This document shows positions 15,671 through 63,525 of a DNA stretch of 63,525 nucleotides, one piece after another. The translations under genes were made by a program, and so were the position numbers. The stretch comes from Spizellomyces punctatus DAOM BR117 (Eukaryota), in NCBI GenBank assembly GCA_000182565.2, contig KQ257458.1. One strand, written 5' to 3'. Below the pieces are notes generated by a model, which searched no databases, was not told the origin of the DNA, and saw only the letters and a program-made list of their open reading frames with translations. Within the stretch, counting starts at the first letter, position 1. Each line of letters begins with the position of its first letter.

Positions 15671-18380
15671 TTACTGGCGTGCAGACTGTCTTCTTTTCCA
15701 CAGCTTGTCCTGAAACGGAGGTGAAACCCTGGTGTTACTTATCAGAATGTTACTAATTGAAGCATCTCCACTTACGTCTCCATTCATCTTAGGTCCATTA
15801 ACAGGACCACTGGTAGCACGCATCAACGATGGAGAATGTACTTCTGTGGGAACAGCGCCATCACTCTGAATCCGACGAAAGTCCGCTAATGAAAAGCGGT
15901 GGTAGGGTGAGCGCGGAGTGCTATTATGCGGAGGCAGTGGAGCGGATGTGTCGCTGACCGCCGTGGATGGTCTGTTATGGGATTCGTTGGAAGGGTCGTG
16001 TTGGGGCTGAGACAGAGCAGACCCACCCAAGCCTAATAGCGCTTTGAGATGATTTTCTGGGTTATCACTACTGGGTATCTCAGGCCTGCTGCTATACACC
16101 TCCGATTGATAGCGTTCTAATGTGGCCAATGCAGGGGCATTGAAATTTGGTGGACCAGGTGTGCTCAGTGGCCATCTGCTCGCACTGTCAGCACCGCTGC
16201 TTGCTTGATTACCGCCAACACCTCCACCACCAATTCCCAACATCATCTTCAAGTGCGATTCCGCTTGCCCTGTGTTGGCTATCGGTAATGTTGGGTTCGA
16301 TGGCCCCTGTTCAGTCACGCTCCCGCGATTCTCGCCCATCAATATATCCAGCAACATCCGTTGCTTGGCTGGACCACGGTCCGCATTGCTAGTTACTGAC
16401 GCTCGTGACGGTGGCCCCGAAAATGCTTCTCGTAGAGGTTCAGAATCATAATTTGGTGGTAGAACGGTCGGTCTCGACGGCATCACTACGGGTTCCGCAC
16501 CCTGGAATGGTATCGTGGGAGGCGGTGGATTGATCGGGACAGGTATGGTGGCTTCCGGGTATGCGGCCGAACCCTTTGTCAAAATATCCAATAAGCTCTG
16601 CTTATGAGTCTGCTGGCCGCTGACGGCAGCAGGCATTGGCATAGGCACGGTGGACGCGATCTCATGGCGGCTCCTGGGAAGGAGAATCTGATTAGGTAAA
16701 TAAGGATGATGTTGGGAAAGATCAGGGTGGGTAGGAGTGGGGATAGGTACGCGGGCCTCTTGTCTTATGGATTGGGGTGTCCCGCTAGCTGCAGGTTGGC
16801 CAAACACCATCCCGAGGTTGGGAGCAATTCCCACAGGGAAAGACGGCGGTGCTCCGACTGCACTATGTGGCGTAGAAATGGTCAACGTAGTTGAGCTAGA
16901 ATGGGGTAATTGCGCAGACTGATACTGCTGAGTGTGTGCATGAAAGGGAGGAACAGGCTGCTCCACGGGTTCATTGAGCGTTGTCGACCGCACGGAAACG
17001 CCAAATACCACCGGGGGCATCTCCTTCGACACATGTGATTGCATATCGACTTGCACTCCAACGGCAGGAGTATTTACAGATGCCCCCACCCCAATCAATG
17101 CCTTGATAGATTGTGCTGCCACTTGTGCATCCATGACAGGAGTCGCTGCACCTTGTTTGGCCACATCTGTCCGTCGTAATAGTTGATAGTTGCCAACCAC
17201 CGACGCTGTTGGCATCCTTGAGTCGATGCCCGACTCTGTACCGGATCGGATGCCGGCGTCCGATGTCGCCCCTTCCCCTTCGCTGTCCGTTGCAGTATTG
17301 TAGCCCATTACTATGGAAAGATGACGCCCATTCCGCGCTTTGCCCTGGCGCTTCGCTTTTCGATATTTACTCATCCACTGCCGAAGGCCGCTAACGAATG
17401 CTGTGACCATGTAGTATTTTTGACGCCTCTCCCCTTTGGAGACTGGTACGTTCTCATCTTTGTTCCATCCCGGCAGATCATTAAGTTTGTGCCACCTGAT
17501 ATCCTGAATTGAATCAGTATAAGCATGAAGGTACAAACAGTGAACGAGCAGAACAGTCCTAAGAAGAAAACCATCTTACCCCGATCTCCTTTCGAGTTTG
17601 TGGAATGAATGTGGTTGCCTCAGGAACACCGGTCAAAATGTATAATCGTATTCTTTGTCCCTTGATCGTCCTCTCTACATACTCATTAACGCGTAAATAT
17701 GGAGTTATGTCGAATCCTGTCTCTTCTTTGACCTTGTGCCCAAAAGAACGATCAGGAGGAATATTTGGATGCGCTGACCATCAATACCATTCTTACCTCA
17801 CGAATAGCACATGGAGCTTCTGGCTCATCCTTATTTATTTTTCCTTTCGGAAAACCCCAACCTGAACTTGATTTCCAGCCTTTCACCAACAAAACCTAAG
17901 GTGGACGTTAGCAAGGAGCCGACCACTAGACACAGAACACTGTACCTTATCCAAACGCTCGTTGAGGATGATTGCTCCACATACTGGCACACGGACTTTG
18001 TACTCCATAAAGTTTTGAAAGGCTTTCTCGTGATCGTGAGCCCATCGATGGAGGAGTGGACAGTGCCGAAAAAACTGGGCGCAAAAGTTTTTTAAGGAAA
18101 ATGAAGGCAGTCGCGGGTTCTCTTCGCGAACGAAGTCCTCGTAAAACCAATGAGCTTGCTCTATTTGAAAACATATTCTTTCAACCGACGCTAGTTCTTC
18201 TTCTGGAATGTTAATGATGAAACGGCTGAGAGAGGGCGGAAGTCGGTGTGAGCTACAAACATCCGACGCATGGCCAAAAAGAATACTGTGCAAAATTCCA
18301 GCTATCATCTAGTTTCCACCATCGCTGTACCTTTGCAGATCGTCCAAAACTTCTTGGAACGTCAGGTCCTGAAATGACAT
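15671..18380 (-). CDS. DCP2: mRNA decapping enzyme Dcp2 (Box A + Nudix + long disordered tail with helical leucine-rich motifs)
   Basis: [55 protein letters not shown]...CAIREV.EETGFD. The tail has SLLDILTKG / MLLDILMG / HLKALLG HLM-like motifs. The 3' end may be spliced differently. Confidence 0.93.
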
Positions 18381-18495: not shown

Positions 18496-19175
18496 CACTA
18501 GGACCCATTATTATCCGGATTAATCCGGTTAATCATATCGCATAATCAGAACCCCCATCTATTGCTCAAAGCGGTGTGGCATGCTAATGTAACTTTTTTT
18601 TTAAACTGCGGTGAGGCACATGTTGAAGGTCTATAAAAGGGGGGCCTTTGCTGTCTCTTCCCTCTTTCCTCTTTACCCATCCTTGACTCTCAAACCATCT
18701 GCGCAACTCTCATCGCGAGTCCATCATGAGAATGCAGATGTGGTGGTGCCGAGGACCTTGCCCTCCCGACTACAACCAACTGGAACCAGCAACAATCACT
18801 CGGAACCAACAAAGCTGCTATTATGCTGCCACATTAGTTGAGCTTGGTTGGTATGTGCTGATTGCATCATTTCATTCTGTTATTCATCTCGCTGACATGC
18901 AGTTTTTTATAGTCTCCAAGTCTTGTCACTGAACATCCTCCAGCTTGCGAGTCTCCCCAATGTTGTGAAGACTCTGGCTTCAATGCCATCAAGAGTTCTG
19001 GATCAAGGCTTAGTAGGGACCGTGTGTGGTGGTGGGCAATTATCCGGTTAGAACCAACCGTTACGTATTGCGTGTATAATTGCCTAGTAGTAGTTAGATA
19101 GCTTTTCCGAACCGGTTGTCGCCGGTTTATTCCCTGGTGTAGTAGCTAGTGCCAGTTTCTGTCACCTCTACACTA
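18496..19175 (+). mobile_element. Non-autonomous Fanzor1-type 'ghost' element, copy 1 (left TIR mostly lost)
   Basis: Aligns along its length with 20845-21577 and with the reverse complement of 47766-48375. Right TIR CTAGTGCCAGTTTCTGTCACCTCTACACTA is intact; the left end starts at CACTAG. Confidence 0.85.
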
Positions 19176-20820: not shown

Positions 20821-21577
20821 TAGTGTGGAGGTGATTGAAAATGGCACTAGGACCCATTATTATCCGGATAATCCGGTTAATCATATCGAATAATCAGAAC
20901 CCCCTCTATCGCTCAAAGCGGTGTGGCATGCATGTAATGTTTTTTTTTTAAACTGCGGTGAGGCGCATGCCAAAGGTCTATAAAAGGGGGGCCTTTTCCC
21001 TCTTTCCTCTTTACCCATCCTCGACTCACAAGCATCTGCCCAACGCTCATCGCAACCCACATTGCAACCTCATAGTGACCCACATTGCAACCTCATTGCG
21101 ACTCGGTCAATCATGAGCATGCAGATGTGGTGGTGTCGAGGACCTCGTCCGCCCGACAGCAACAACGGCCAGAACCAGCAGCAACCAGTTGGATCTGTTG
21201 ACAAACCTACTATTATGCTGCCACATTTGTTGAGCTTGGTTGGTATGTACCGATGGCATCATTTCTTATCATCTGGTCATCTTCTGACATGCAGTTCTAG
21301 TCTCCAAGCCTTCGTTACTGAACATCCTCCGGCTTGCGAGTCTCCCTGACGATATTAACTCTCTTGCGACGACTCTCGCTTCAATGTCGATCAAGAGTTG
21401 CGGATCAAGGCCCAGTAGGAACGCGTGTGGTGGTGGGCAATTATCCGGTTAGAACCAACCGTTACGGATTGCGTGTATAATTGCCTAGTAGTTAGTTAGT
21501 TAGCTTTTCCAAACCGGTTGTCGCCGGTTTATTCCCTGGTGTAGTAGCTAGTGCCATTTTCTGTCACCTCTACACTA
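20821..21577 (+). mobile_element. Non-autonomous Fanzor1-type 'ghost' element, copy 2 (complete, 757 bp)
   Basis: 30-bp TIRs at 20821-20850 and 21548-21577 (27/30 match), each bounded by TA. Left junction reads CAACA|TAGTG (CATA). No transposase or nuclease ORF. Confidence 0.9.
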
Positions 21578-22453: not shown

Positions 22454-25400
22454 ATGGTCGTTCATCAAAGGGTGAAACAGCTGCGGGGGGATTGGGTGCC
22501 ATCCACCACGCTTCGTCGCTCACGCTCCCAGACTTTCTTGCAGCACAGCATGGTCAACCGCTGGTCCGTTCTCCCGGGAGGAACGCCAAAGGCCCGCAAC
22601 GCTATCGCTCCCGTCGAATCCAGTCCCTCCCTTACACAGTCTGACTTTGAAAAGTTGACGCGCATCTACGCGCTTGTCGCTCACCGAGCTCGCCGTCTCG
22701 CCATCCTCCATCGCCATAAAGACAACAAGGCCCTCGTCACATCCTACCAGGAACTCGTCATCGACTGTCACTCCTTGCTCGCCCTCGTAGAAGAACGGTA
22801 TTTCCCGTCGCGTACCGAAAAGGGTGGGCATCAGTTTGCAACATGGTCCTCTCCGTCTGGGCATCATGCGAACGCACCAAGACCTGCGAGCGATCTTAAA
22901 TTTCCTGGAGCAAAACAGTTGGCCTTGATTCAAGCGGTTGGAACATTAAAGGATGCATTAAATACTTTGTCGCGTACCATCCGGCGGATATCATCTGGTA
23001 CACCACCGCCAGGAAGCGAGAGCACCGCAAAAGGTGAACAAGACCCTCTCGAGCGGGATCTCGCAACCGTCCTAACATCAGCACGATCGATCCTGGATGT
23101 TGCCAGCAAGTTTGAGCCTTCCCAAAGAAACGATCATCGGGCATTGAACAAACGTGCATCGTTGGGATCGATCTTCTCTCGCTTTGGCAATGGCAATGGC
23201 AACGGCAACACGAGCAACAGTAACAACAACAACCACAACAGCAACAGCAACAACAGCAGCACAAACAAACTCAATCGATCCTTTTCCGACCCAGTAACTG
23301 TAGAAGAGGCCCGTGATGCAAACGGGTCGTCGGGAACAAACGTCAAAAAGACCTTGTCTCTCGCCAAAGAGTCTCGCAAACGTCGCAGCGGGCTAACCAG
23401 TGAACGCCCTACCAGTGATCCTCTCTCAAAAGACTTTCGCAATGCCCTGTCTGTATTGTCTCAACTGACTACAGTGATTGGCAGCAATCTCCAAGAGTTT
23501 CGCCTTTTGCAGAGTAACATTTCAAATTCTTCCACGCCACTCGATCATAAACTCGTAATGGATATGGAAGTACTGGAACGCTGTTACGAAGATGCATTAG
23601 ATCAGCTAGTACCGCTCAGCTCATCCCTCGCGACACTATGGGAACAAGCCTTTGTCGGCAGCATCGGCGCCATCCAGCGTCTACGCCAATCAAACGCAGA
23701 AAAGGACCAGGAAATGTCTCGTCTGACAAGGCAATGCGAGGAATTCCAAAAAATGAACACAGCACTCTTGGAAGAGAATACACTGCTGAAGCGCGAAATG
23801 GAATTCATTCGTCGAACGGGCATGGAACCCTGTGCGACCCCCATGTCTGAGGACATGCGCTCCATAATCTCCCTCCCCCTCCCTAGCCCCGCTCTCGAGC
23901 TGGAACTGGTTGAAACAGATCTAGTCCCCAGCGCAATGTCCTCTATCGTCGTCTCACCCCCCGAACTCGACTATGTGGAAATCGTCGAGGAACAAACCAA
24001 CCATGCCGACGCGGTCGTTTTGAATAGATTGTACAGTGAAGTACGGGAAGCGCAGGCTTTGTTGGATGATGTGGAGAAGCGGAGGAGGAGTGTCATGGGA
24101 TCTTTGGATAGACCTGCTCGACCTAGATCCGAAAAGGCGCTCACCTTGCCTCGTATTGCAAGTTCTGCGCCCTTGTGGCACGATGTAGGTTGAAGTCTTT
24201 CTGGGCGTATTGTTTTATTATTTCCGATACTCAACGTTCTACAGTTTTTCCCTCAGGATCCCAAAGCCAAGGCATGTGTCATTATCCAAGCACGCTGGCG
24301 AGGCTATAGGGCGCGGAAAACTTTCAAAGGCATCAAACTCCGTTTGATGATTGTAAACGAAATGCTCGACACGGAGGCATCCTACGTGAAGGGCCTTCTG
24401 ACCATTCACAAGGTAAATATTTATCAAACCCACATTGTGTTTCTTTAGCGCTAACTTTCTTTTGACAGGAATTTATGATTCCACTCAAAGAAGAAATGAA
24501 TCAGAACAGCAGCATTATCAGTCGCAAGGATTATGACTGCATCTTTCGGCACGTGGAAGAGATTATGGCGTTCAACCAGCTCTTGTTGGATGATTTGGTC
24601 GAGCGGGTGGCGTTTTGGCATTTTGAGCAGGTTTTGGGGGATATTTTCATTCGTGCTGTAAGTATCTTGCAAGTGTTTAAGTTGATTGGGTATGTGGCCC
24701 TAACGCGCGGATCATGTAGGCCGAATCGATGAAAATATATGCGCACTTTGTCAACAAGTAGGTCCAATAGATAGCGGTAGTTATCCGTTTTTGATGTGAC
24801 TGACTTGCTTTTCAGTTACGACCAAGCTGTCGAAACCCTTAACCGTGTCTCAGAAAATCCAGCCTTTGAAAAAAAGCTACAGGTAACGACGCTCTAAAGA
24901 ATGCTGGAGATATAACGCATCCTAACACCTTGAGATGCAGGATATCAGCAAAAACATGGGCACCCGCGCCCCAAATTTGACCGACCTCCTCATCACACCA
25001 GTTCAACGTCCTCCTCGCTACCTTCTCATGCTCAAGGTAACCCACCAACCCCGTATTTCCCACGCCCTTGCACATCTAACCCCCGTTTCAAAACAGGAAC
25101 TCTTGAAGCGTACACCATCTACCCACCCCGACCATAACTCCCTCACCACCGCTCTCCAGAAAATGGAACGCACTGTCCAAATCATTAATGAACGCAAAAA
25201 GCGGTTCGAGATGATGAAAAAGGTTCAGGACATGGTTATCGGGAGTCCATTTGTAAGTCACACCGTGATATCAACATTCGTTGGCCGCGATACTTATATA
25301 TTTTTCTTTTGTCATTCTGTAGGAACTCGTGACACCTGGCCGGTACCTAACCCACCAGGGCCCCCTTCTCGAACTAAATGATCAAGGACCCGCTGCCGAC

Positions 25401-26768: not shown

Positions 26769-26840
26769 GGGCTCAGCCGGGAATCGAACCCGGGACCACC
26801 CGCACCCTAAGCGGGTATTATACCACTAAACCACTGAGCC
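26769..26840 (-). tRNA. tRNA-Pro(AGG)
   Basis: 72-nt cloverleaf GGCTCAG...CTGAGCC with anticodon arm CCCGC-TT-AGG-GT-GCGGG and GGTTCGATTCC T-loop; identical to 57203-57274. Confidence 0.97.
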
Positions 26841-43364: not shown

Positions 43365-43450
43365 GCTTCCGTGGCGCAATTGGTTAGCGCGTTCGGCTGT
43401 TATCTCGTATAGCTACCGAGAGGTTGCCAGTTCGACCCTGGCCGGGAGCG
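43365..43450 (+). tRNA. tRNA-Asn(GTT) with 12-nt intron (43403-43414)
   Basis: Acceptor GCTTCCG/CGGGAGC, D arm TGGCGCAATTGGTTAGCGC, anticodon CT-GTT-A^A with the intron at canonical 37/38, T arm GCCAG-TTCGACC-CTGGC. Confidence 0.95.
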
Positions 43451-47562: not shown

Positions 47563-47745
47563 GATGTTTCTCTTCAGCGGAGTTTTAGGCGCAATTGACA
47601 GTCAGGAGGGTGTGTTGGAGAGGAGCCCTCTCCGATCGATTGTGAGAAGCGACGGTATAGCAATGTCTTGGTAGTGTTTGGGCGGGTCGGAAGTTGAAAG
47701 CAAAACGATTGCGGGCGAAGCGGTGCTGTGGGTCAAAGGGTAAGC

Positions 47746-47841
47746 AAAGCCCCGTCTCACGCGCTTAGTGTATTAGGTGACAGAAACTGGCACTAGCTAC
47801 TACACCAGGGAATAAACCAGCGATAACTGGTTCGGAAAAGC
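47746..47841 (-). ncRNA. Putative Fanzor omegaRNA: scaffold 47841-47766 + guide AGCGCGTGAGACGGGGCTTT
   Basis: Scaffold GCTTTTCCGAACCAGTTATCGCTGGTTTATTCCCTGG...ATACACTA; stem 1 shows a compensatory G-C to A-T change relative to copies 1 and 2. Confidence 0.75.
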
Positions 47842-48400
47842 CAAGTAATTCCCTCCTTACAACCAACCAACTACTACTAGGCCCAATTACACATGCAATA
47901 CATTACGGTTGTTCTAACCGGGTAACTAGCGCCCACCACCACGAGAGAAATCCTACTAAGCCCTTGATTCCGAAATTCTTTAGTCGGAGGATGTTCAGAT
48001 ACTAATTAAACCAGAATTAGACTCGGAATACGCGTGGGAAAATACAAAGATAATGCATACCTGCGATCGTTGCAGCATAGTAGTAGCAGTGTTTGCAAGG
48101 GGTTATGTTGTTGTCGTTGTCGGGCGGACGAGGTCCTCGGCACCAGAGCAATATTCTCATGATGGACTGAGACTTGTTGGGCGGATGCTTTGAGTCGAGG
48201 ATGGGAAAAGAGGAAAGAGGGAAAAGGCCCCCCTTTTATAGACCTTTGGCATGCGCCTCACCGCAGTTTAAAAAAAAAGTTACATTAGCATGCCACACCG
48301 CTTTGAGCAATAGATGGGGGTTCTGATTATGCGATATGATTAACCGGATTAATCCGGATAATAATGGGTCCTAGTGCCATTTTCAATCACCTCCACACTA
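47766..48400 (-). mobile_element. Non-autonomous Fanzor1-type 'ghost' element, copy 3 (complete, 635 bp, more diverged interior)
   Basis: Left TIR (reverse complement of 48371-48400) is identical to that of copy 2 and preceded by CAACA; right TIR at 47766-47796; TA at both ends. Confidence 0.9.
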
Positions 48401-48738
48401 TGTTGATGAGGGGTTCTTCGACGGAGGTCGCAGTAAAAAGTGATATAGAAACTCAGATACAAGCTTTTATTTCTTAACGATGCTCCAGTGTTTATTCTGC
48501 TGCTCCAGTATATGACTCCCCAACTGATGATGGCCCTTTATACAGCTCCAGCTCATGCTATACCCATGTATATGACATCTTCCAAGATCATTGCTAGCTA
48601 AGAGAATATACAATATTCCATGACGTCCATGACTATACAACACAATTAATGGGCTCCCTTTTCTCACTTCAATGTTTTCCAGAAAATATCCAGATTGTAG
48701 CAGACGTTCTGAGCAAGCCTCTGTTCAGGTCGATTTAC

Positions 48739-57202: not shown

Positions 57203-57274
57203 GGCTCAGTGGTTTAGTGGTATAATACCCGCTTAGGGTGCGGGTGGTCCCGGGTTCGATTCCCGGCTGAGCCC
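57203..57274 (+). tRNA. tRNA-Pro(AGG)
   Basis: Canonical cloverleaf, identical to the copy at 26769-26840; T-run terminator at ~57296. Confidence 0.97.
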
Positions 57275-57336: not shown

Positions 57337-57400
57337 CCAACATGCCCTGAAATATACCGCCACAACTGGGTTGGTAGAAGGAGGAAACCACCCCCAATCA
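57337..57400 (-). repeat. Solo copy of the 79-bp repeat unit found in the 58.5-58.9 kb array
   Basis: ACCGCCACAACTGGGTTGGTAGAAGGAGGA is the exact reverse complement of the array core. Confidence 0.85.
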
Positions 57401-57563
57401 CTAGCACACGTTTGCTAGAGTGATAATACAAGTGCAGTACCACAGTACACCAGTCCTGACCTCTGATTGGCTGCACGCGGTTCATTGGTGTGCCCCTGGT
57501 AATTTATGTTAATACACGCGTGTCTAATTGTTTTGTAATATAGTAGCGTCCATAAATTTTAAC

Positions 57564-57757
57564 ATCGGACATCACGCAGGCAGCCGTCTCAGATCAGCTG
57601 TTTTCCTCTACTGTTCAGTGGTATTGAATACTAATATTACATGCTTTTAAAATACAGAAAAACAGGCGAGATACTTTCAATGCATTGGATAATAAATGAT
57701 ATAAATGTACTCTGTAACAAATCCAGCAGTATTTGCTATTCTAGTCTTAAAATGGGT
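57564..57757 (+). promoter_or_regulatory. Conserved upstream element of PPxY gene A
   Basis: Near-identical to the reverse complement of 60871-61060; core also present at 60064-60144 (reverse complement). Confidence 0.7.
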
Positions 57758-57901
57758 CAATGTTGTGCAATGGATATATAGGAGTTATATTTGATTTACA
57801 GACGCGTGGCAAGTCGCGTGAATCCGGCCCGAGTTGTGCCGACCAGTAGTCCATACAAAAGGCGCACACTGCGCGTCCGGCATCTCTATCCAACTTGGTC
57901 C

Positions 57902-59276
57902 ATGGACAAGCCGGCCGTAAGACTACCAACCGATGCAACTCATATTACGATTGTTCTTTATAGTGATGAGGCTGTAAAGGATGATGAGTATTATATGCGG
58001 GAGGTTCTGCAGTTACCTTTCCCGTGCTTATGGAAAGTGACTGCATGCCCAGTTCGCGGTGGACGGACCAGAGTCACTATAGTTTTGAGACCAGAAGATA
58101 AGGCTCTTTCTGATATTCTTGACCATTTAAGAATCATCAGCGATGGGCAATATGAAGTTAACAACTTTATTATTCATAGTAAATCAGGTCGAAGACTGGG
58201 TCTGGAAGAGTGCTGCTCTTCTAGTTTGGATCTGGAAAACACTTTGAGATGTTTGGGCATAATTGGTTAGTAGAGTTGGTTTCTCATTCTTATTTCCTCA
58301 TATCGCAAATTTACTGAATGCATGCTTTCAGTTCTGGATGCACCTCCGAATTATGCAGACCTGGTTCAAGAAGCGCTTGAAGGTAATATTGTATTCATGA
58401 TATTTGGCCTTATGACTTTCACCGTCTGGAGATGGATTCCCATAACCGCAGGACTTCGATTTGCGTTCTTACCATCGATTAGTATGGAGACCAGCTAAAG
58501 CATTCGGCCTGGTCAGTCAATCGGTGGCCATTCCCTCCTGCTGTAATTCGACCTGTGGCGGCTATATTCAAAGCAATTGGACGTAGCGGCAAGCGATATT
58601 ACTCTGCCTTTCTCTCCTGCTGTGATCTGACTTGCGGCGGCTATATTCAAAGCACCTGGGCGTAGCGGCAAGCGATATCACTCTGCCTTTCTCTCCTGCT
58701 GTGACCAACTTGGGTGCAGTGGCAAGCGGACTGGGGAGTGGTTCCTCCTTCTACCAACCCAGTTGTGGCGGTGTGGTTCAAAGCATGTTGGGACGCAGTG
58801 GCAAGCGGACTGGGGAGTGGTTCCTCCTTCTACCAACCCAGTTGTGGCGGTATGGTTCAAAGCAGGTTGCGGCACAGTGGCAAGCGGAGTGGGGTCGGTT
58901 GGTTGCATCATACCGAATGCGGCGGTTGCGTTGAAGTACTAGGCATCAAGTCGTTGGTCATTTCGTATTCGTCGTTCGATAGACGGATCCCATTTCCAGC
59001 TAAGTCGCGCTTTTGTGTGTATTCCTGATTTATCATTTATTATATTCCCAAACTTTAGAAAGGAAGAAAAGGGTCTGGACGGAACAAGTAGAAAAGGATC
59101 AAGAGGCAGACAGGAGACGCATGAAGGCGCGTTTAATAGATGCTATGGAGTAAGTAACCATTGACTTCTCTAGCTTTTTATTACAGATTATTTATCAAAT
59201 TCGTTACAGGGTTTTAGGTGACCGTGCGGCGGTGGTTCGGCTGGATCAGGATGGTTTTAGCTTTGTTTTGAAATGA
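57902..59276 (+). CDS. PPxY family paralog A (extra ~120-aa N-terminal region; 4 exons)
   Basis: Introns 58266-58331, 58383-59058 and 59150-59209 give an open frame ...VLDAPPNYADLVQEALEERKKRVW...EADRRRMKARLIDAMEVLGDRAAVVRLDQDGFSFVLK*. Confidence 0.65.
58497..58935. repeat. Tandem array of ~5-6 degenerate 79-bp units inside intron 2 of gene A
   Basis: Period of 79 bp (58561/58640; 58721/58800/58879); two sub-types share GGCAAGCG and TTCAAAGCA. Confidence 0.85.
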
Positions 59277-59432
59277 TGTATATACATTTTTTTAAATAAA
59301 TATATTTGTTTTTACCCTAGCTCTGGCTCGTGTACAGTATGTGCACATTACCACTCCTACATAAGTGCGAATTACAAGTCGTATCAACGTAATCACCGGA
59401 CAATTTGCGAACTGTATAGACTTTTGCCACCA

Positions 59433-59779
59433 TCATTTCAAAATGAATCGAACACCTTGATCGTCAATAATAACTTTCGCCACCCTGTCACCATAGCTCG
59501 TCATCATCACTCTATACGCGGGTAATACATGTTGTCAATTAAAACCCGAGCCGGGCCAAATGGACTGACTACCTACTCCATATAATCTCTCATACGAGCC
59601 CTGTCTCGCTCTTCTTCATGTGCAACCTGGTCGACCACGTCCGTATAATCTGGTGGGCTTTCGGCGCCAGTAGTAATCGCTGGACCGAGAATTTGAAATG
59701 AGCCAACGAGATACTAATATGCATTCAAGACTGACGACTAACTATTTTCCTCCAAGGTACTTGAGGGTTTGGTATCCAT
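59433..59779 (-). CDS. PPxY family paralog B (~72 aa, 3 exons)
   Basis: Spliced MDTKPSSTLEENTITTGAESPPDYTDVVDQVAHEEERDRARMRDYMEVMMTSYGDRVAKVIIDDQGVRFILK*; last intron in the same phase-2 Glu codon as in paralogs A and C. Confidence 0.72.
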
Positions 59780-59905
59780 GAGTACAGTGAATTGGCGAGT
59801 AAAACGAGTACAGTACACTGAATTGGCGAGTAAATCGAGTACAGTACACTGAATTGGCGAGTAAATCGAGTACAGTACGCTGAATTGGCGAGTAAATCGT
59901 ACCGT
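59780..59905. repeat. 31-bp tandem repeat (GAGTACAGTACACTGAATTGGCGAGTAAATC) x ~4
   Basis: Units at 59780 (shortened), 59806, 59837 and 59868; abuts the ATG of paralog B. Confidence 0.92.
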
Positions 59906-60063
59906 GAAATGGGGGAAAAACCTGGGCGTCAAAGCGTGTAGTCCAAACGATGGCGACTGAAGGTGTACTGGCGTGATCCCACGTGATCAGAGGCGTCCAA
60001 AAGACAAGTATACTAGTAACCCCAAATTTCGTTTTGATATGGCCGACGATGTATTTTATACAT

Positions 60064-60144
60064 ATTTTAAAGCATGTAGAACTAGTCTATTACGTTGAAC
60101 AGCAGAGGAAACAGTCGATGTGAGACCCTTGCCTCATGTCCGAC
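60064..60144 (-). promoter_or_regulatory. Diverged copy of the PPxY-gene upstream element (gene B)
   Basis: Reverse complement reads TCGGACAT...GTCTCACATCGACTGTTTCCTCTGCTGTTCA...TACATGCTTTAAAATA, matching 57564-57656. Confidence 0.6.
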
Positions 60145-60440
60145 AAAGAGATATGTAGGAGGTGTACATTTTGTACAAGTCTTCGAGGTTGATCATGTAG
60201 TGATAGCTATGCCTGGCTCAGCTCTGAACATTGCCGAAAAGAAACATGCCTCGTCAAGATGACACCAAAAGACAGAGCATTAGTAGATGGATGCAATTCA
60301 CGGTCAGGTAGTCGTGCTTTTAGTCACAAGAGTAGCATATGTTTTTCAGGTTGTATTATAAGATTGCCATTAACCTTTACATTCTTCCAGGATGCACTTC
60401 TTATCGATGCAACGTCGTATGGCTGGCAGCTTCCAGGGCC

Positions 60441-60718
60441 TCATTTCAAACTGAATCGAATCCCTTTATCGTCGACAGTAAGTTTCGCTATACAGTCACC
60501 ATAAACTCTCCTCACAGCTCTAAAACGAAACGTATGTACATTTTGTCAACTACAACCGAAGCCAAACCACGTGGATTGACGACTTACTCTGCACTGGCAA
60601 AGATCCGAGCCTGCGTTCTCTTGCGGTCCCGCTCTTCTTCCTCGCTGAATACCACGTCCCCATAAGCGGGTGGATTTTCTTGGTTTTCTTGGGCTGAAGG
60701 GTTAGAAGGGTTGTCCAT
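60441..60718 (-). CDS. PPxY family paralog C (~69 aa, 2 exons)
   Basis: Intron 60520-60587; MDNPSNPSAQENQENPPAYGDVVFSEEEERDRKRTQARIFASAEAVRRVYGDCIAKLTVDDKGIRFSLK*. Confidence 0.72.
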
Positions 60719-60870
60719 GATGCGAGATGATGGCTAGATGGAGAGGTCGTGTTGTGACAAGCGTGATTCCACATGATCCCACGCGTCGGGCGCCCAAGTT
60801 GGATGGAGATGCAGGACGCGCCTTTTTATTATGGACTCCTGGTCGCGCCAACACGGTTGCCACAACTATC

Positions 60871-61060
60871 ACCCATTTCCTTAATACTAGAATAGCAAAT
60901 ATTGCTGGATTTGTTACAGAGTACATGGACAGAATTTATTATGCGATGCATTGAAAGTATCTCGCCTATTTTTCTGTATTTCTGAAGTATGTAAAATTAG
61001 TATTTAATACCACTGAACAGTAGAGGAAAACAGCTGATCTGAGACGGCCTGAAGTCCGAT
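60871..61060 (-). promoter_or_regulatory. Conserved upstream element of PPxY gene C
   Basis: Inverted near-copy of 57564-57757. Confidence 0.7.
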
Positions 61061-61214
61061 AAAGAGTTATGGACATGTTTGGTCATGTAGGATCACGCCA
61101 GTACAATACTTGTAGTACTGGTAGGTCGATACTTTTTTGATTTGTTTATCAACCAAGCTATAGCCCCTGGATGCGATGAGCTTGCTGGGTAGCTTCGGTT
61201 TGCATTATGCGCAC

Positions 61215-63525
61215 GTGACCAATCAGATCTGTCCTGTTAAGCTTTTTGGTTGAACGATCATATTGGCGCTAGAATCTTTTTCTTCCCACTTTTTTCAATC
61301 ATTTGTTTGTAATGGAGAACCATAGGGAAAGATCAGAAGTCATACCTACTGGAACTCTCCAGCTACGTCGTCGCAATAGAGGCCCTCAGCGGGCACCCGA
61401 AGTATGTGAACATGAATATCGTCCATTTTAGACTTGCAGACTGGCCAAGATTCTTGATTATCCGTAATTTGCCTGGTGGATAGAATTAACCCAGGGGGGC
61501 GGGGAAACCGCCCAGAAACAAAGCGACACTAGCATATTTCGCCCACTGAGCGGATTGACAGTTTTTTTTGTGTGTTTTGTTTCACAGCTCCTGAGCCTTT
61601 TTTAGAGTCACAGGAGTCGCCGGCTGGGAGACACACATCTCAGCAGGTACGTAAGTTACATGAATGTCATCCAGACTGCCAAAATTTGTTGATTCTCGTA
61701 ATTTTCCATGTCATAAAAGGAACCCAAATGGCGCGCACCATCGGAAGCCGCGCCGGGTAAGAAACAGCGCAAGGTACGTGACAGTCTAATCTTTGTCTTT
61801 GACATTTCGTTGGGTGTGTTATTCATGCCACCAATTGTATCGTCAGAATCCCGCCTGCAAAGGGGCGGGGGACAAGATGCAGCAGCGCCCAACCATGTTG
61901 CAAGAATTAGGCGGAGGCAGCCTCCAGATACGTCAGAGGGTATTTGATGTAAGTATCATTGTGACATGATGAAGCTTTGTTTGGATATCCTAAAACTTTG
62001 TATTTTGGATCATTACACTCCGAAGATAAATACAAACAAGTTTAAAATTTAAGTCTCTGTGCATGATCTGTATTTGCATATATTAAATATATTCTTGTCT
62101 CAAAGTAAAAGAATTTGATTATCATCGACGCAAGCTGTAGACTCTGTGGAGGTGTTTACGTGAGTGGGAGTGGGGTGGACGTCAATTTCATGCAACGTCA
62201 CCAATCAGATCTATTTCACACGGACTTTGCGAACATATCAATTGAACAATCATATTGGTGCTAGACTCTTTTTTCCTCCTGCCTTTCAGTCATTTACTTG
62301 CAACGGCGGGCAAAAGGAAAACATTAGAAACATTCACACTCATTGGGACAAGTCAATATTCACCTGTCAAGCGGGTTGAATTGAATTATAGGTATGAAGC
62401 GGAGGTATGTGATTCACCTTAAATCGACGATAAACCTGATGACTCGGTTTCAATTGATGAAAGAGATGGGTCAAATGACACTGTCTCACTTGGTGAGGGC
62501 TTGGTACTCCTGGCTGAACGATTATATATTGTCGCTGGACTCTTTCCTCTTCCTCGCCTTTCAATCATCTGTCATTAGACTCTTTTTCTTCTTCCTGCCT
62601 TCTCAATCATTTATTTATATGGCATCAGAATCATAATCAGAATCTGAACCATTTCGTTTCTGGGACTCACCAGCTGGCCAGCGACAGAGGTTCTCAGCAG
62701 GCAGAGGAAGGATGTGTATGAATGTCATCCAGACGGCCAAACTTGTTTGATTCTCATATTTCCATTTCATAAAACAGCCAGACGGCGTGCAACCGCCGGA
62801 TCAACCATCGGAATCGTGCCGAGCAAGGTATGTTCCAGCATAATGTTTGTCCACTGAGTGAGTTGACATTTGGGTTTGTTTCATGTCACCAGCTATATTG
62901 ACGGAAATCCGCAACCAAACGGGCCGGGAGGGGAAATGGTACCCAAAGCCGCTTTTCAAGCTGTTCGGCAAATAGCTGAACAGCGGAGGGGTCAACCTCC
63001 AAATACCAAACACCGTTCTTGAGGTAAAGCATCATTGTGACATGACATGCATTGTATGGCGTTTTGGTTCCCTAAACTTTTTGTATTTTTGGATCATTGT
63101 GCACAGACGCTTCAGCTGATGAGCGAAGGCTTTATGGTGGCCTTCTTGGAAACTCGAACCTCCTCGCCCTGCCCTATCGAGAATCCGCAACCGGAAGGGC
63201 GAGAAGGGGAAAGCAGCGATCCCGAAAGCTGCCTTCGAGAGCGTTTGCCGGGGAGGTCTTAACGTAAGTACCATTGTGAATTGAATGAAAGCTTTTGTAT
63301 GGCTTTTGGTATCCTAAAATTTGTATTTTTGGATCATTGTGCACAGGGGCTTCAACTGAGCGAGGGATTTATGGTCGTAATTTCTGGGAGGTTCAAATTT
63401 GCTCGCTGAACACTGTCGCTGCCGGACGATACAGCATCGGAAGGATGATAAATCATCATTCTTTCGCTTGCTCTACAGTTCGGCGGCGACAGTGTTCGGC
63501 GAGGATATATGCATCTGTAAATTGT
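61215..63525 (+). pseudogene. Cluster of decayed tandemly duplicated multi-exon gene units
   Basis: Repeated leader (CCAATCAGATCT...TGAAC.ATCATATTGG.GCTAGA...) at ~61219 and ~62200, partial at ~62577. ATG in the first copy is ACG in the second. Homologous intron-like segments at 61647-61720/62715-62777 and 61949-62025/63024-63106/63264-63346; no long open spliced frame. Confidence 0.55.

Follow-up and report, generated by a model that had tools for sequence, protein, structure and literature searches.

Stem-loop 1 of the Fanzor omegaRNA in ORF-less elements of Spizellomyces punctatus: a compensated pair that is probably an old shared allele

Main finding

Stem-loop 1 of the omegaRNA borne by ORF-less "ghost" elements of Spizellomyces punctatus is under RNA-type pairing constraint. 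This constraint is probably exerted as a filter when the elements are copied, and the G-C to A-U exchange at positions 13 and 23 of the stem is then best regarded as an old shared allele, supplied by CpG transitions and shuffled by recombination. An earlier note on this DNA had interpreted the exchange, seen in one of three copies, as a sign of selection on RNA structure in ORF-less copies. The stem as a whole bears out the pairing constraint, but the exchange itself cannot carry the second part of that claim. The window is the whole stretch of 63,525 nucleotides analysed here (contig KQ257458.1). Statements on PMC10432273, PMC13434818, PMC11423790, PMC3627910, PMC10690162 and PMC12695648 refer to the accessible portions of these papers.

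Identity and layout of the window copies

The hairpin belongs to a published omegaRNA, that of the ghost Spu-1 Fanzor element, and forms its stem-loop 1. Ghost Spu-1 comprises 134 ORF-less loci in S. punctatus, with 30-nt inverted repeats (IRs), a CA upstream of the left IR and a 75-nt scaffold over the right IR (Saito 2023, PMC10432273); copy 3 of the window likewise has 30-nt IRs, the CA, no ORF and a 74-75-nt scaffold overlapping its right IR. Three hairpins, AACCGG-TTGTCG-CCGGTT in copies 1 and 2 and AACCAG-TTATCG-CTGGTT in copy 3, lie near the right end of three elements of 635-760 bp each with IRs of ~30 nt (Table 1), and the sequences, the swap and the loop change are as the earlier note had described them. 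The pattern has four matches in the window at up to three mismatches, against 0.30 expected by chance, and the right ends of copies 1-3 share the same two-stem fold (z = -3.5 to -3.9). The 75-nt scaffold, two stems and a linker, is homologous to the SpuFz1 omegaRNA. Both IRs are present in copy 3, the outer left one is missing from copy 1, and the left IRs of copies 2 and 3 are both preceded by CA (CA-TA, the hyphen standing before the left TA). No ATG ORF of at least 120 aa lies inside any of the three copies. At the Rfam 15 gathering score three tRNAs are the sole matches in the window, the ghost scaffold being unmatched.

Table 1. Features of the three ghost copies, in window positions
Feature	Position	Strand	Remarks
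Ghost Spu-1 element, copy 3	47766..48400	-	without ORF, IR-flanked, CA-TA at left; layout as in Saito 2023
Copy 3 omegaRNA scaffold, 75 nt	47766..47840	-	from fold; numbering checked against ORF locus L141
Copy 3 hairpin	47815..47832	-	AACCAG-TTATCG-CTGGTT
Copy 3 stem-loop 1, 7 bp	47814..47833	-	A13 = 47828, U23 = 47819, loop A17 = 47824
Copy 3 right IR, also 3' strand of stem 2	47766..47796	-	repeat search, fold
Copy 3 putative 15-nt guide (flank)	47751..47765	-	suggested by the 14-15-nt extension in Saito 2023; low read-through
Copy 3 left IR	48371..48400	-
Copy 3 upstream CA of CATA TAM	48401..48402	-
Copy 3 transcript intron, 59 nt	48002..48060	-	GT-AG; transcript runs into scaffold
Copy 3 TATA-like box TATAAAA	48234..48240	-	upstream of sense-read onset
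Ghost copy 1	18496..19175	+	outer left IR missing; scaffold 19102-19175, G13-C23
Copy 1 hairpin	19110..19127	+	AACCGG-TTGTCG-CCGGTT
Ghost copy 2	20821..21577	+	scaffold 21504-21577, G13-C23 and A8-U28
Copy 2 hairpin	21512..21529	+	AACCGG-TTGTCG-CCGGTT

Stem-loop 1 has 7 bp rather than 6, G8 being paired with U or C28, and is also given as 7 bp in PMC11423790. In SpuFz1 numbering the copy 3 change is G13-C23 to A13-U23 with loop G17A. The residues named by Saito 2023 (U5, C6, G20, G22, A29-C34, C40-G70 and A75) fit the scaffold of ORF locus L141. SpuFz1 genes are present in the genome (55 protein matches to the SpuFz1 C-terminus), and ORF locus L155 encodes a 638-aa SpuFz1 matching the solved chain PDB 8gkh.

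The ghost system and working A-U scaffolds are already published. Ghost1 and Ghost2 of Saito 2023 have the same A13-U23 pair as copy 3, which differs from the Saito ghosts by the additional loop G17A and one extra right-end base; Ghost4 is one base apart from the copy 1 scaffold. The gst1-gst126 panel (PMC13434818, 2026) lists A13-U23 with the copy 3 loop as gst6, gst89 and gst101, and the one A13-U23 scaffold tested there, gst28, is the panel's best. The exact copy 3 scaffold, with its G17A loop, is absent from the tested scaffolds in the accessible portions of PMC10432273 and PMC13434818. The accessible part of PMC10432273 holds no covariation or mutation-spectrum analysis, that of PMC13434818 is an engineering screen with no evolutionary test, and our literature search, with subscription papers mostly outside it, returned no paper on covariation in ghost stems. 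With the TnpB-omegaRNA of IS200/IS605 (PMC10690162) the ghosts share a guide taken from the flank beyond the right end and a target that is the empty site behind the TAM; unlike it, they are eukaryotic, IR-flanked and TA-duplicating, use a nuclease in trans and have no TnpB-type pseudoknot.

Pairing constraint on stem-loop 1

Right-end and left-end patterns gave 112 and 127 matches in the genome; the analysis rests on 100 of the 112 and 100 of the 127, and the copy set is thus incomplete. After removal of the duplicate L045, 146 ends were placed on SpuFz1 numbering. The ORF-less count excludes L037 and L109, in which stem 1 is missing, L061, whose 5' part is damaged, 15 ends of Fanzor type, and L154, L159 and L160, which carry an ORF but have ghost-like ends; 127 ORF-less ends remain.

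Across 93 distinct scaffolds stem 1 is 97.7% paired. Three of its seven pairs (9/27, 12/24 and 13/23) show two-sided changes and six show G.U; a two-sided change is present in 70 cells, where shuffles give 17 and slid registers no more than 14. Two pair-count measures did not exceed the shuffles (120/500 for pairs with two-sided changes, 142/500 for further pair types). All 46 SPu-1 ORF loci keep every stem 1 pair, their variants being wobbles. The change A9-U27 to G-C is two-sided and non-CpG, and U12-A24 with G9-C27 forms a second compensated haplotype, found in ORF-less ends only. In the loop, U15, U16, C19 and G20 are invariant in 131 ORF-less-type ends, and G17 and U18 vary. The loop CpG C19-G20 never varies in these ends (rough Poisson p = 0.01-0.02), which could mean some in-place constraint. 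In the cryo-EM structure G20 pairs with C6 near the active site and stem-loop 1 contacts RuvC/NUC (PMC10432273).

Published activities agree with such a constraint. Ghost1 and Ghost2, both A13-U23, are described in the text of PMC10432273 as comparable in activity to the extended canonical RNA. In PMC13434818, gst28 (A13-U23, SPu-2-type loop) gave 55.8-61.1% indels, ghost1 (G-C) 43.7-58.1%, and gst25 (C12.A24 mismatch with a stem-2 change), the weakest true scaffold, 24.8-30.3%. Several other entries of that panel are of a different nature: in its Supplementary Data 1, gst3, gst7, gst73, gst98 and others represent left ends in reverse complement, and gst1, gst8, gst16 and more are right ends of SPu-3 type in truncated form, so that their low activity is explained. 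The "canonical" and gst2 rows in the Fig. 3c source data of the same paper are nearly identical in value.

The scaffold is better conserved than the element interior, as the earlier note had stated (identity to consensus 0.96 and 0.79 in 92 full-length copies). The left IR (0.96) and the left subterminal region 31-104 (0.93) of the same copies are conserved to a like degree, and the contrast is therefore not RNA-specific; it is as expected for any transposon end.

Frequency and origin of the A13-U23 pair

Among the 127 ORF-less ends the 13/23 pair is G-C in 83, A-U in 32, G.U in 6, A.C in 5 and U.C in 1; in the subset of 109 ends found without using stem 1 the counts, in the same order, are 72, 26, 5, 5 and 1. 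A-U is hence a common shared allele and not an event of copy 3. The copy 3 loop base A17 occurs in 11 ends, all with A13. An unrelated soil RNA run yielded contig X3 (depth 3.4) with the copy 3 stem-loop unchanged and one difference outside the stem.

None of the 46 SPu-1 nuclease loci has A-U at 13/23, but both loci of the nuclease-coding SPu-2 do, with the stem-loop GAACCAG-TTTACG-C-TGGTTC. The SPu-2 Fanzor1 family (Bao and Jurka 2013, PMC3627910) has the same stem-loop 1 with A13-U23, U17 and A18; it encodes a Fanzor ~57-59% identical to SpuFz1 and differs from the ghosts in its ends and in its short, different stem 2. At both SPu-2 loci (L219 and L220, G000:C9 about 617-620 kb and 622-625 kb) a very short stem 2 follows stem-loop 1, which suggests from sequence an SPu-2 omegaRNA scaffold of ~45 nt only. 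An origin of A-U in ghosts, proposed on the grounds that the pair is missing from SPu-1 ORF loci, was dropped, since SPu-2 carries the pair. The compensation may have become fixed in a protein-coding lineage, and neither the origin of A13-U23 nor any selection on it need lie in an ORF-less copy.

A block of several changes (G10, A13, U17, A18, U23) is found on unrelated element backgrounds, and L097 has it whereas the near-identical L091 does not, which indicates that the stem-loop has been exchanged between copies as a short block. Ghost haplotypes with the SPu-2-type U17/A18 loop also stand on unrelated element backgrounds, and the ghost sequence directly upstream of the scaffold is nearer to SPu-2 (83-86% alike). 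A count of independent origins on a tree of the element remainder was abandoned, the blocks recurring on distant branches as expected from recombination; judged from the sequences, the origins of A13-U23 may be as few as one.

Both changes, G13A and C23U, are CpG transitions. Outside the scaffold such transitions affect 14.4% of cells against 5.2% for other C/G (~2.8-fold), and 68/72 CpG positions are variable against 132/240 other C/G; 5mC is limited to transposons in Spizellomyces (PMC12695648). A CCGG/CCGG hairpin allows four cross-arm combinations of CpG transitions, two of which are, by arithmetic, Watson-Crick compensated, and one compensated double in three copies is for this reason weak evidence. 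Given a shared allele also fixed in SPu-2, CpG transitions as its source and block exchange among copies, the swap cannot be ascribed to selection within ORF-less copies. A13-U23 and G13-C23 would rather be an old allele pair, shared with SPu-2, that owes its origin to deamination of CpG on opposite strands and its present distribution to short-tract recombination between copies.

Transcription

An ordinary RNA-seq run (X22, about 6% read, reads up to 60 nt) gave 187,281 reads at ≥90% likeness, and the ghost family is strongly transcribed. Sense depth is 33,142 over the stem (47806-47839, a family-level value), 6,993 over the IR, 302 across the end and 28 in the copy-3-unique bin 47704-47737: transcription runs on the scaffold strand into the flank, most reads coming from the family and not from copy 3 alone. 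Upstream, depth rises from 16 to ~5,900 between bins 48214-48247 and 48146-48179. The intron joint 48001-48061 is covered by 268 reads with 17 starts, which may derive from sister copies.

Level at which selection acts

In 87 full-length copies private substitutions amount to 4.53 per 1000 cells in the protein-contacting core, against ~4.8 in neighbouring conserved DNA (left subterminal 4.27, pre-scaffold 5.30; p = 1.0). The depletion of private mutations in the structured core that would mark a host-maintained non-coding RNA gene is absent from these 87 copies. Half-swapped copies are A.C in 5 cases and G.U in 6, with no sign of filtering, and 10/127 ghost stems are broken against 0/46 at ORF loci. 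Fully paired stems make up 8/9 of the ghost haplotypes seen twice or more and 4/10 of the private ones, a borderline contrast (p = 0.057), the broken haplotype A13.C23 being present in 4 copies. With private scaffold mutations undepleted and shared haplotypes paired, a filter at amplification and none at resting copies is the simplest reading.

The following course would account for these data. Ghost elements, as observed at family level, are transcribed through a spliced leader into scaffold and flank. The scaffold would load SpuFz1 made in trans, as suggested for the fungus by the support that ghost scaffolds, other than that of copy 3, give to SpuFz1 cutting in human cells; the guide would direct cutting of the empty CATA site, and repair from an element-bearing copy would restore the element. 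Elements with a paired stem 1 would thereby be copied and pairing-preserving variants amplified, resting copies decaying unfiltered.

It is unlikely, by comparison, that the compensated pair arose and was kept in ORF-less copies, each ghost locus being a functional RNA gene of benefit to the host or to a guide repertoire. The abundance of A-U in ghosts and its absence from the 46 SPu-1 ORF loci (p = 3e-5) would fit such genes, as would the high transcription of ghosts, the invariance of C19-G20 and the restriction of U12-A24 with G9-C27 to ORF-less ends. Against them stand the fixation of A-U in the ORF-bearing SPu-2, the undepleted private mutations, the near equality of A.C and G.U in half-swapped copies and the excess of broken stems in ghosts. 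Moreover, a genome search with the copy 3 guide at up to two mismatches found no CATA-preceded target beyond the element's own flank. The earlier note's proposal that ghosts are functional RNAs accordingly stands as regards activity, with published A13-U23 ghosts working and the family transcribed, and as regards retention is not borne out by this swap.

Still less probable, and already disfavoured, is the absence of any RNA-level selection, CpG decay and founder amplification producing the pattern and the end being conserved as a DNA transposon end. The two CpG transitions and the conservation of the left end agree with it, and linkage is widespread: 117/794 pairs of variable sites 5-15 nt apart have an r2 at least that of the 13/23 pair, and the CpG pair at consensus 625/633 reaches r = 0.82. 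A naive 2x2 test of 13/23 (odds ratio 95, p = 1.5e-19) was accordingly rejected as evidence, the copies being related and these nearby pairs equally linked. However, CpG-transition pairs with r > 0.75 are only 2/23, amplified variants are repeatedly G.U or two-sided, including the non-CpG change of A9-U27 to G-C, the sole tested copy with a stem-1 mismatch is the weakest true scaffold, and stem-loop 1 contacts the nuclease. Methylation-driven C>T, which the earlier note had named as a competing cause, thus explains where the mutations come from, but not the stem as a whole, in which amplified variants keep pairing.

That other linked CpG pair, in which C>T goes together with G>A (consensus 623-635, window 47881-47895, minus strand), lies in a 3-4-bp hairpin ~40 nt upstream of the scaffold and marks the copy 3 subfamily. 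It represents either more structure or a chance CpG "compensation".

In quasi-palindrome template switching a change is copied from one arm of a hairpin to the other. Such one-step DNA repair, yielding compensated doubles without selection, is the least probable explanation: the arms are near-perfect inverted repeats 6 nt apart and intermediates are rarer than doubles (11 against 32), but the left-end palindrome CCGG-ATTAAT-CCGG shows uncompensated single CpG changes only in 92 copies, which argues against it, and the G.T mismatches at 8/28 and 10/26 that persist in compensated haplotypes would be removed by correction at the DNA level.

Flank motifs and a second type of ghost

A transposase is expected to show a symmetric flank preference. 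In SPu-1-type ghosts CA precedes the left TA in 81/90 cases (background CA-TA 7%) and A stands at -1 in 88/90, against the mirror TG after the right TA in 4/90; this one-sided bias fits a TAM better than a symmetric transposase preference.

Another right end is common to 27 loci, 26 of them without a long ORF before it. The remaining one, a single copy, has a Fanzor-like ORF 24% identical to SpuFz1 and is SPu-3 of Bao and Jurka (PMC3627910). The first 540 nt of L100 share 88% identity with copy 3, and its last 193 nt share 96% identity with SPu-3. The left end and body of copy 3, joined to the last ~190 nt of the SPu-3 Fanzor locus, occur in the ghosts L099, L100, L102-L104, L110, L112, L115, L117, L121, L123-L127, L161-L164 and L167-L169 (G000). 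Where the left end is readable, ghosts with the SPu-3 right end follow T-TA in 18/19 cases (p about 2e-19 against the SPu-1 type). The T-TA family was discarded as an omega-less control, its right end being the 3' end of the SPu-3 Fanzor locus.

The switch of flank with right-end type suggests that each guide recruits its own Fanzor, and the SPu-3-type ghosts probably serve a second Fanzor with another TAM. We lean slightly towards the view that ghosts form a modular chassis, made up of left end, promoter and spliced leader, on which omegaRNA modules are exchanged between Fanzor families, the module deciding the site of persistence. The SPu-3 coding locus itself follows CA-TA, which speaks against reading the flank simply as a TAM, and the switch could also stem from another transposase or from a target choice tied to the right end. 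SPu-3-type ends also figure in the published list of ghosts, where they are not separated from Spu-1 ghosts; with SpuFz1, two truncated examples reached no more than 6-9% indels (PMC13434818). Our literature search, with subscription papers mostly outside it, nowhere found SPu-3-type ghosts as a separate class.

The SPu-3 Fanzor (L165:593-2480, G000:C7:73042-74929) has a frame that stops at 568 aa; beyond a 63-nt GT..AG stretch (L165:2261-2323) comes a frame that supplies the missing Cys pair and also the third RuvC motif. The gene, described by Bao and Jurka (PMC3627910) as one exon with stops, is on the strength of these motifs probably intact with one intron. A third right-end type (L113, L122, L131, L132, L134-L140, L143, L172) has the same stem-loop 1, but its stem 2 and IR belong to the SPu-3 left-end type. 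Where the IR differs, so does the 5' strand of stem 2, with pairing preserved; ~7,400 RNA reads match this type, and every readable left flank is CA-TA, whatever the left-end type.

Other features of genome and window

L105/L119 (G000:C8 about 909.1-909.7 kb) and L158 (G000:C6 about 278.4 kb) are rearranged elements, one with two facing left ends and one with two scaffold 5' halves head to head. Two 579-aa ORFs (window 15671-17410, minus strand, and 22454-24193, plus strand) point away from the interval holding ghost copies 1 and 2 and are possibly divergent duplicated genes. Dense repeats occupy window 57337-63516, with 79-nt and 31-nt tandem units, a 168-nt inverted repeat pair (57583-57750 and 60881-61048) and a 57-nt hairpin at 63389-63516; these are probably other transposon remnants. 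tRNA genes lie at 26769-26840 (-), 57203-57274 (+) and 43365-43450 (+), the first two identical over 72 nt.

Implications

Saito 2023 (PMC10432273) leaves the biological role of Fanzors open. A signature of selection on guides without a nuclease would bear on it, and the A13-U23 swap is not such a signature, being an inherited allele that tested scaffolds already carry. The constraint on stem 1 apparently acts at multiplication, which fits selfish retention rather than host use. The SPu-3-type ghosts are a lead worth following, with a testable TAM prediction for a second Fanzor. The modular chassis, if true, would provide evidence from within the genome that non-autonomous elements are retained through Fanzor-guided cutting of empty sites, and would predict a 5'-TTA-type TAM and an omegaRNA of 100-200 nt for the putative SPu-3 nuclease.
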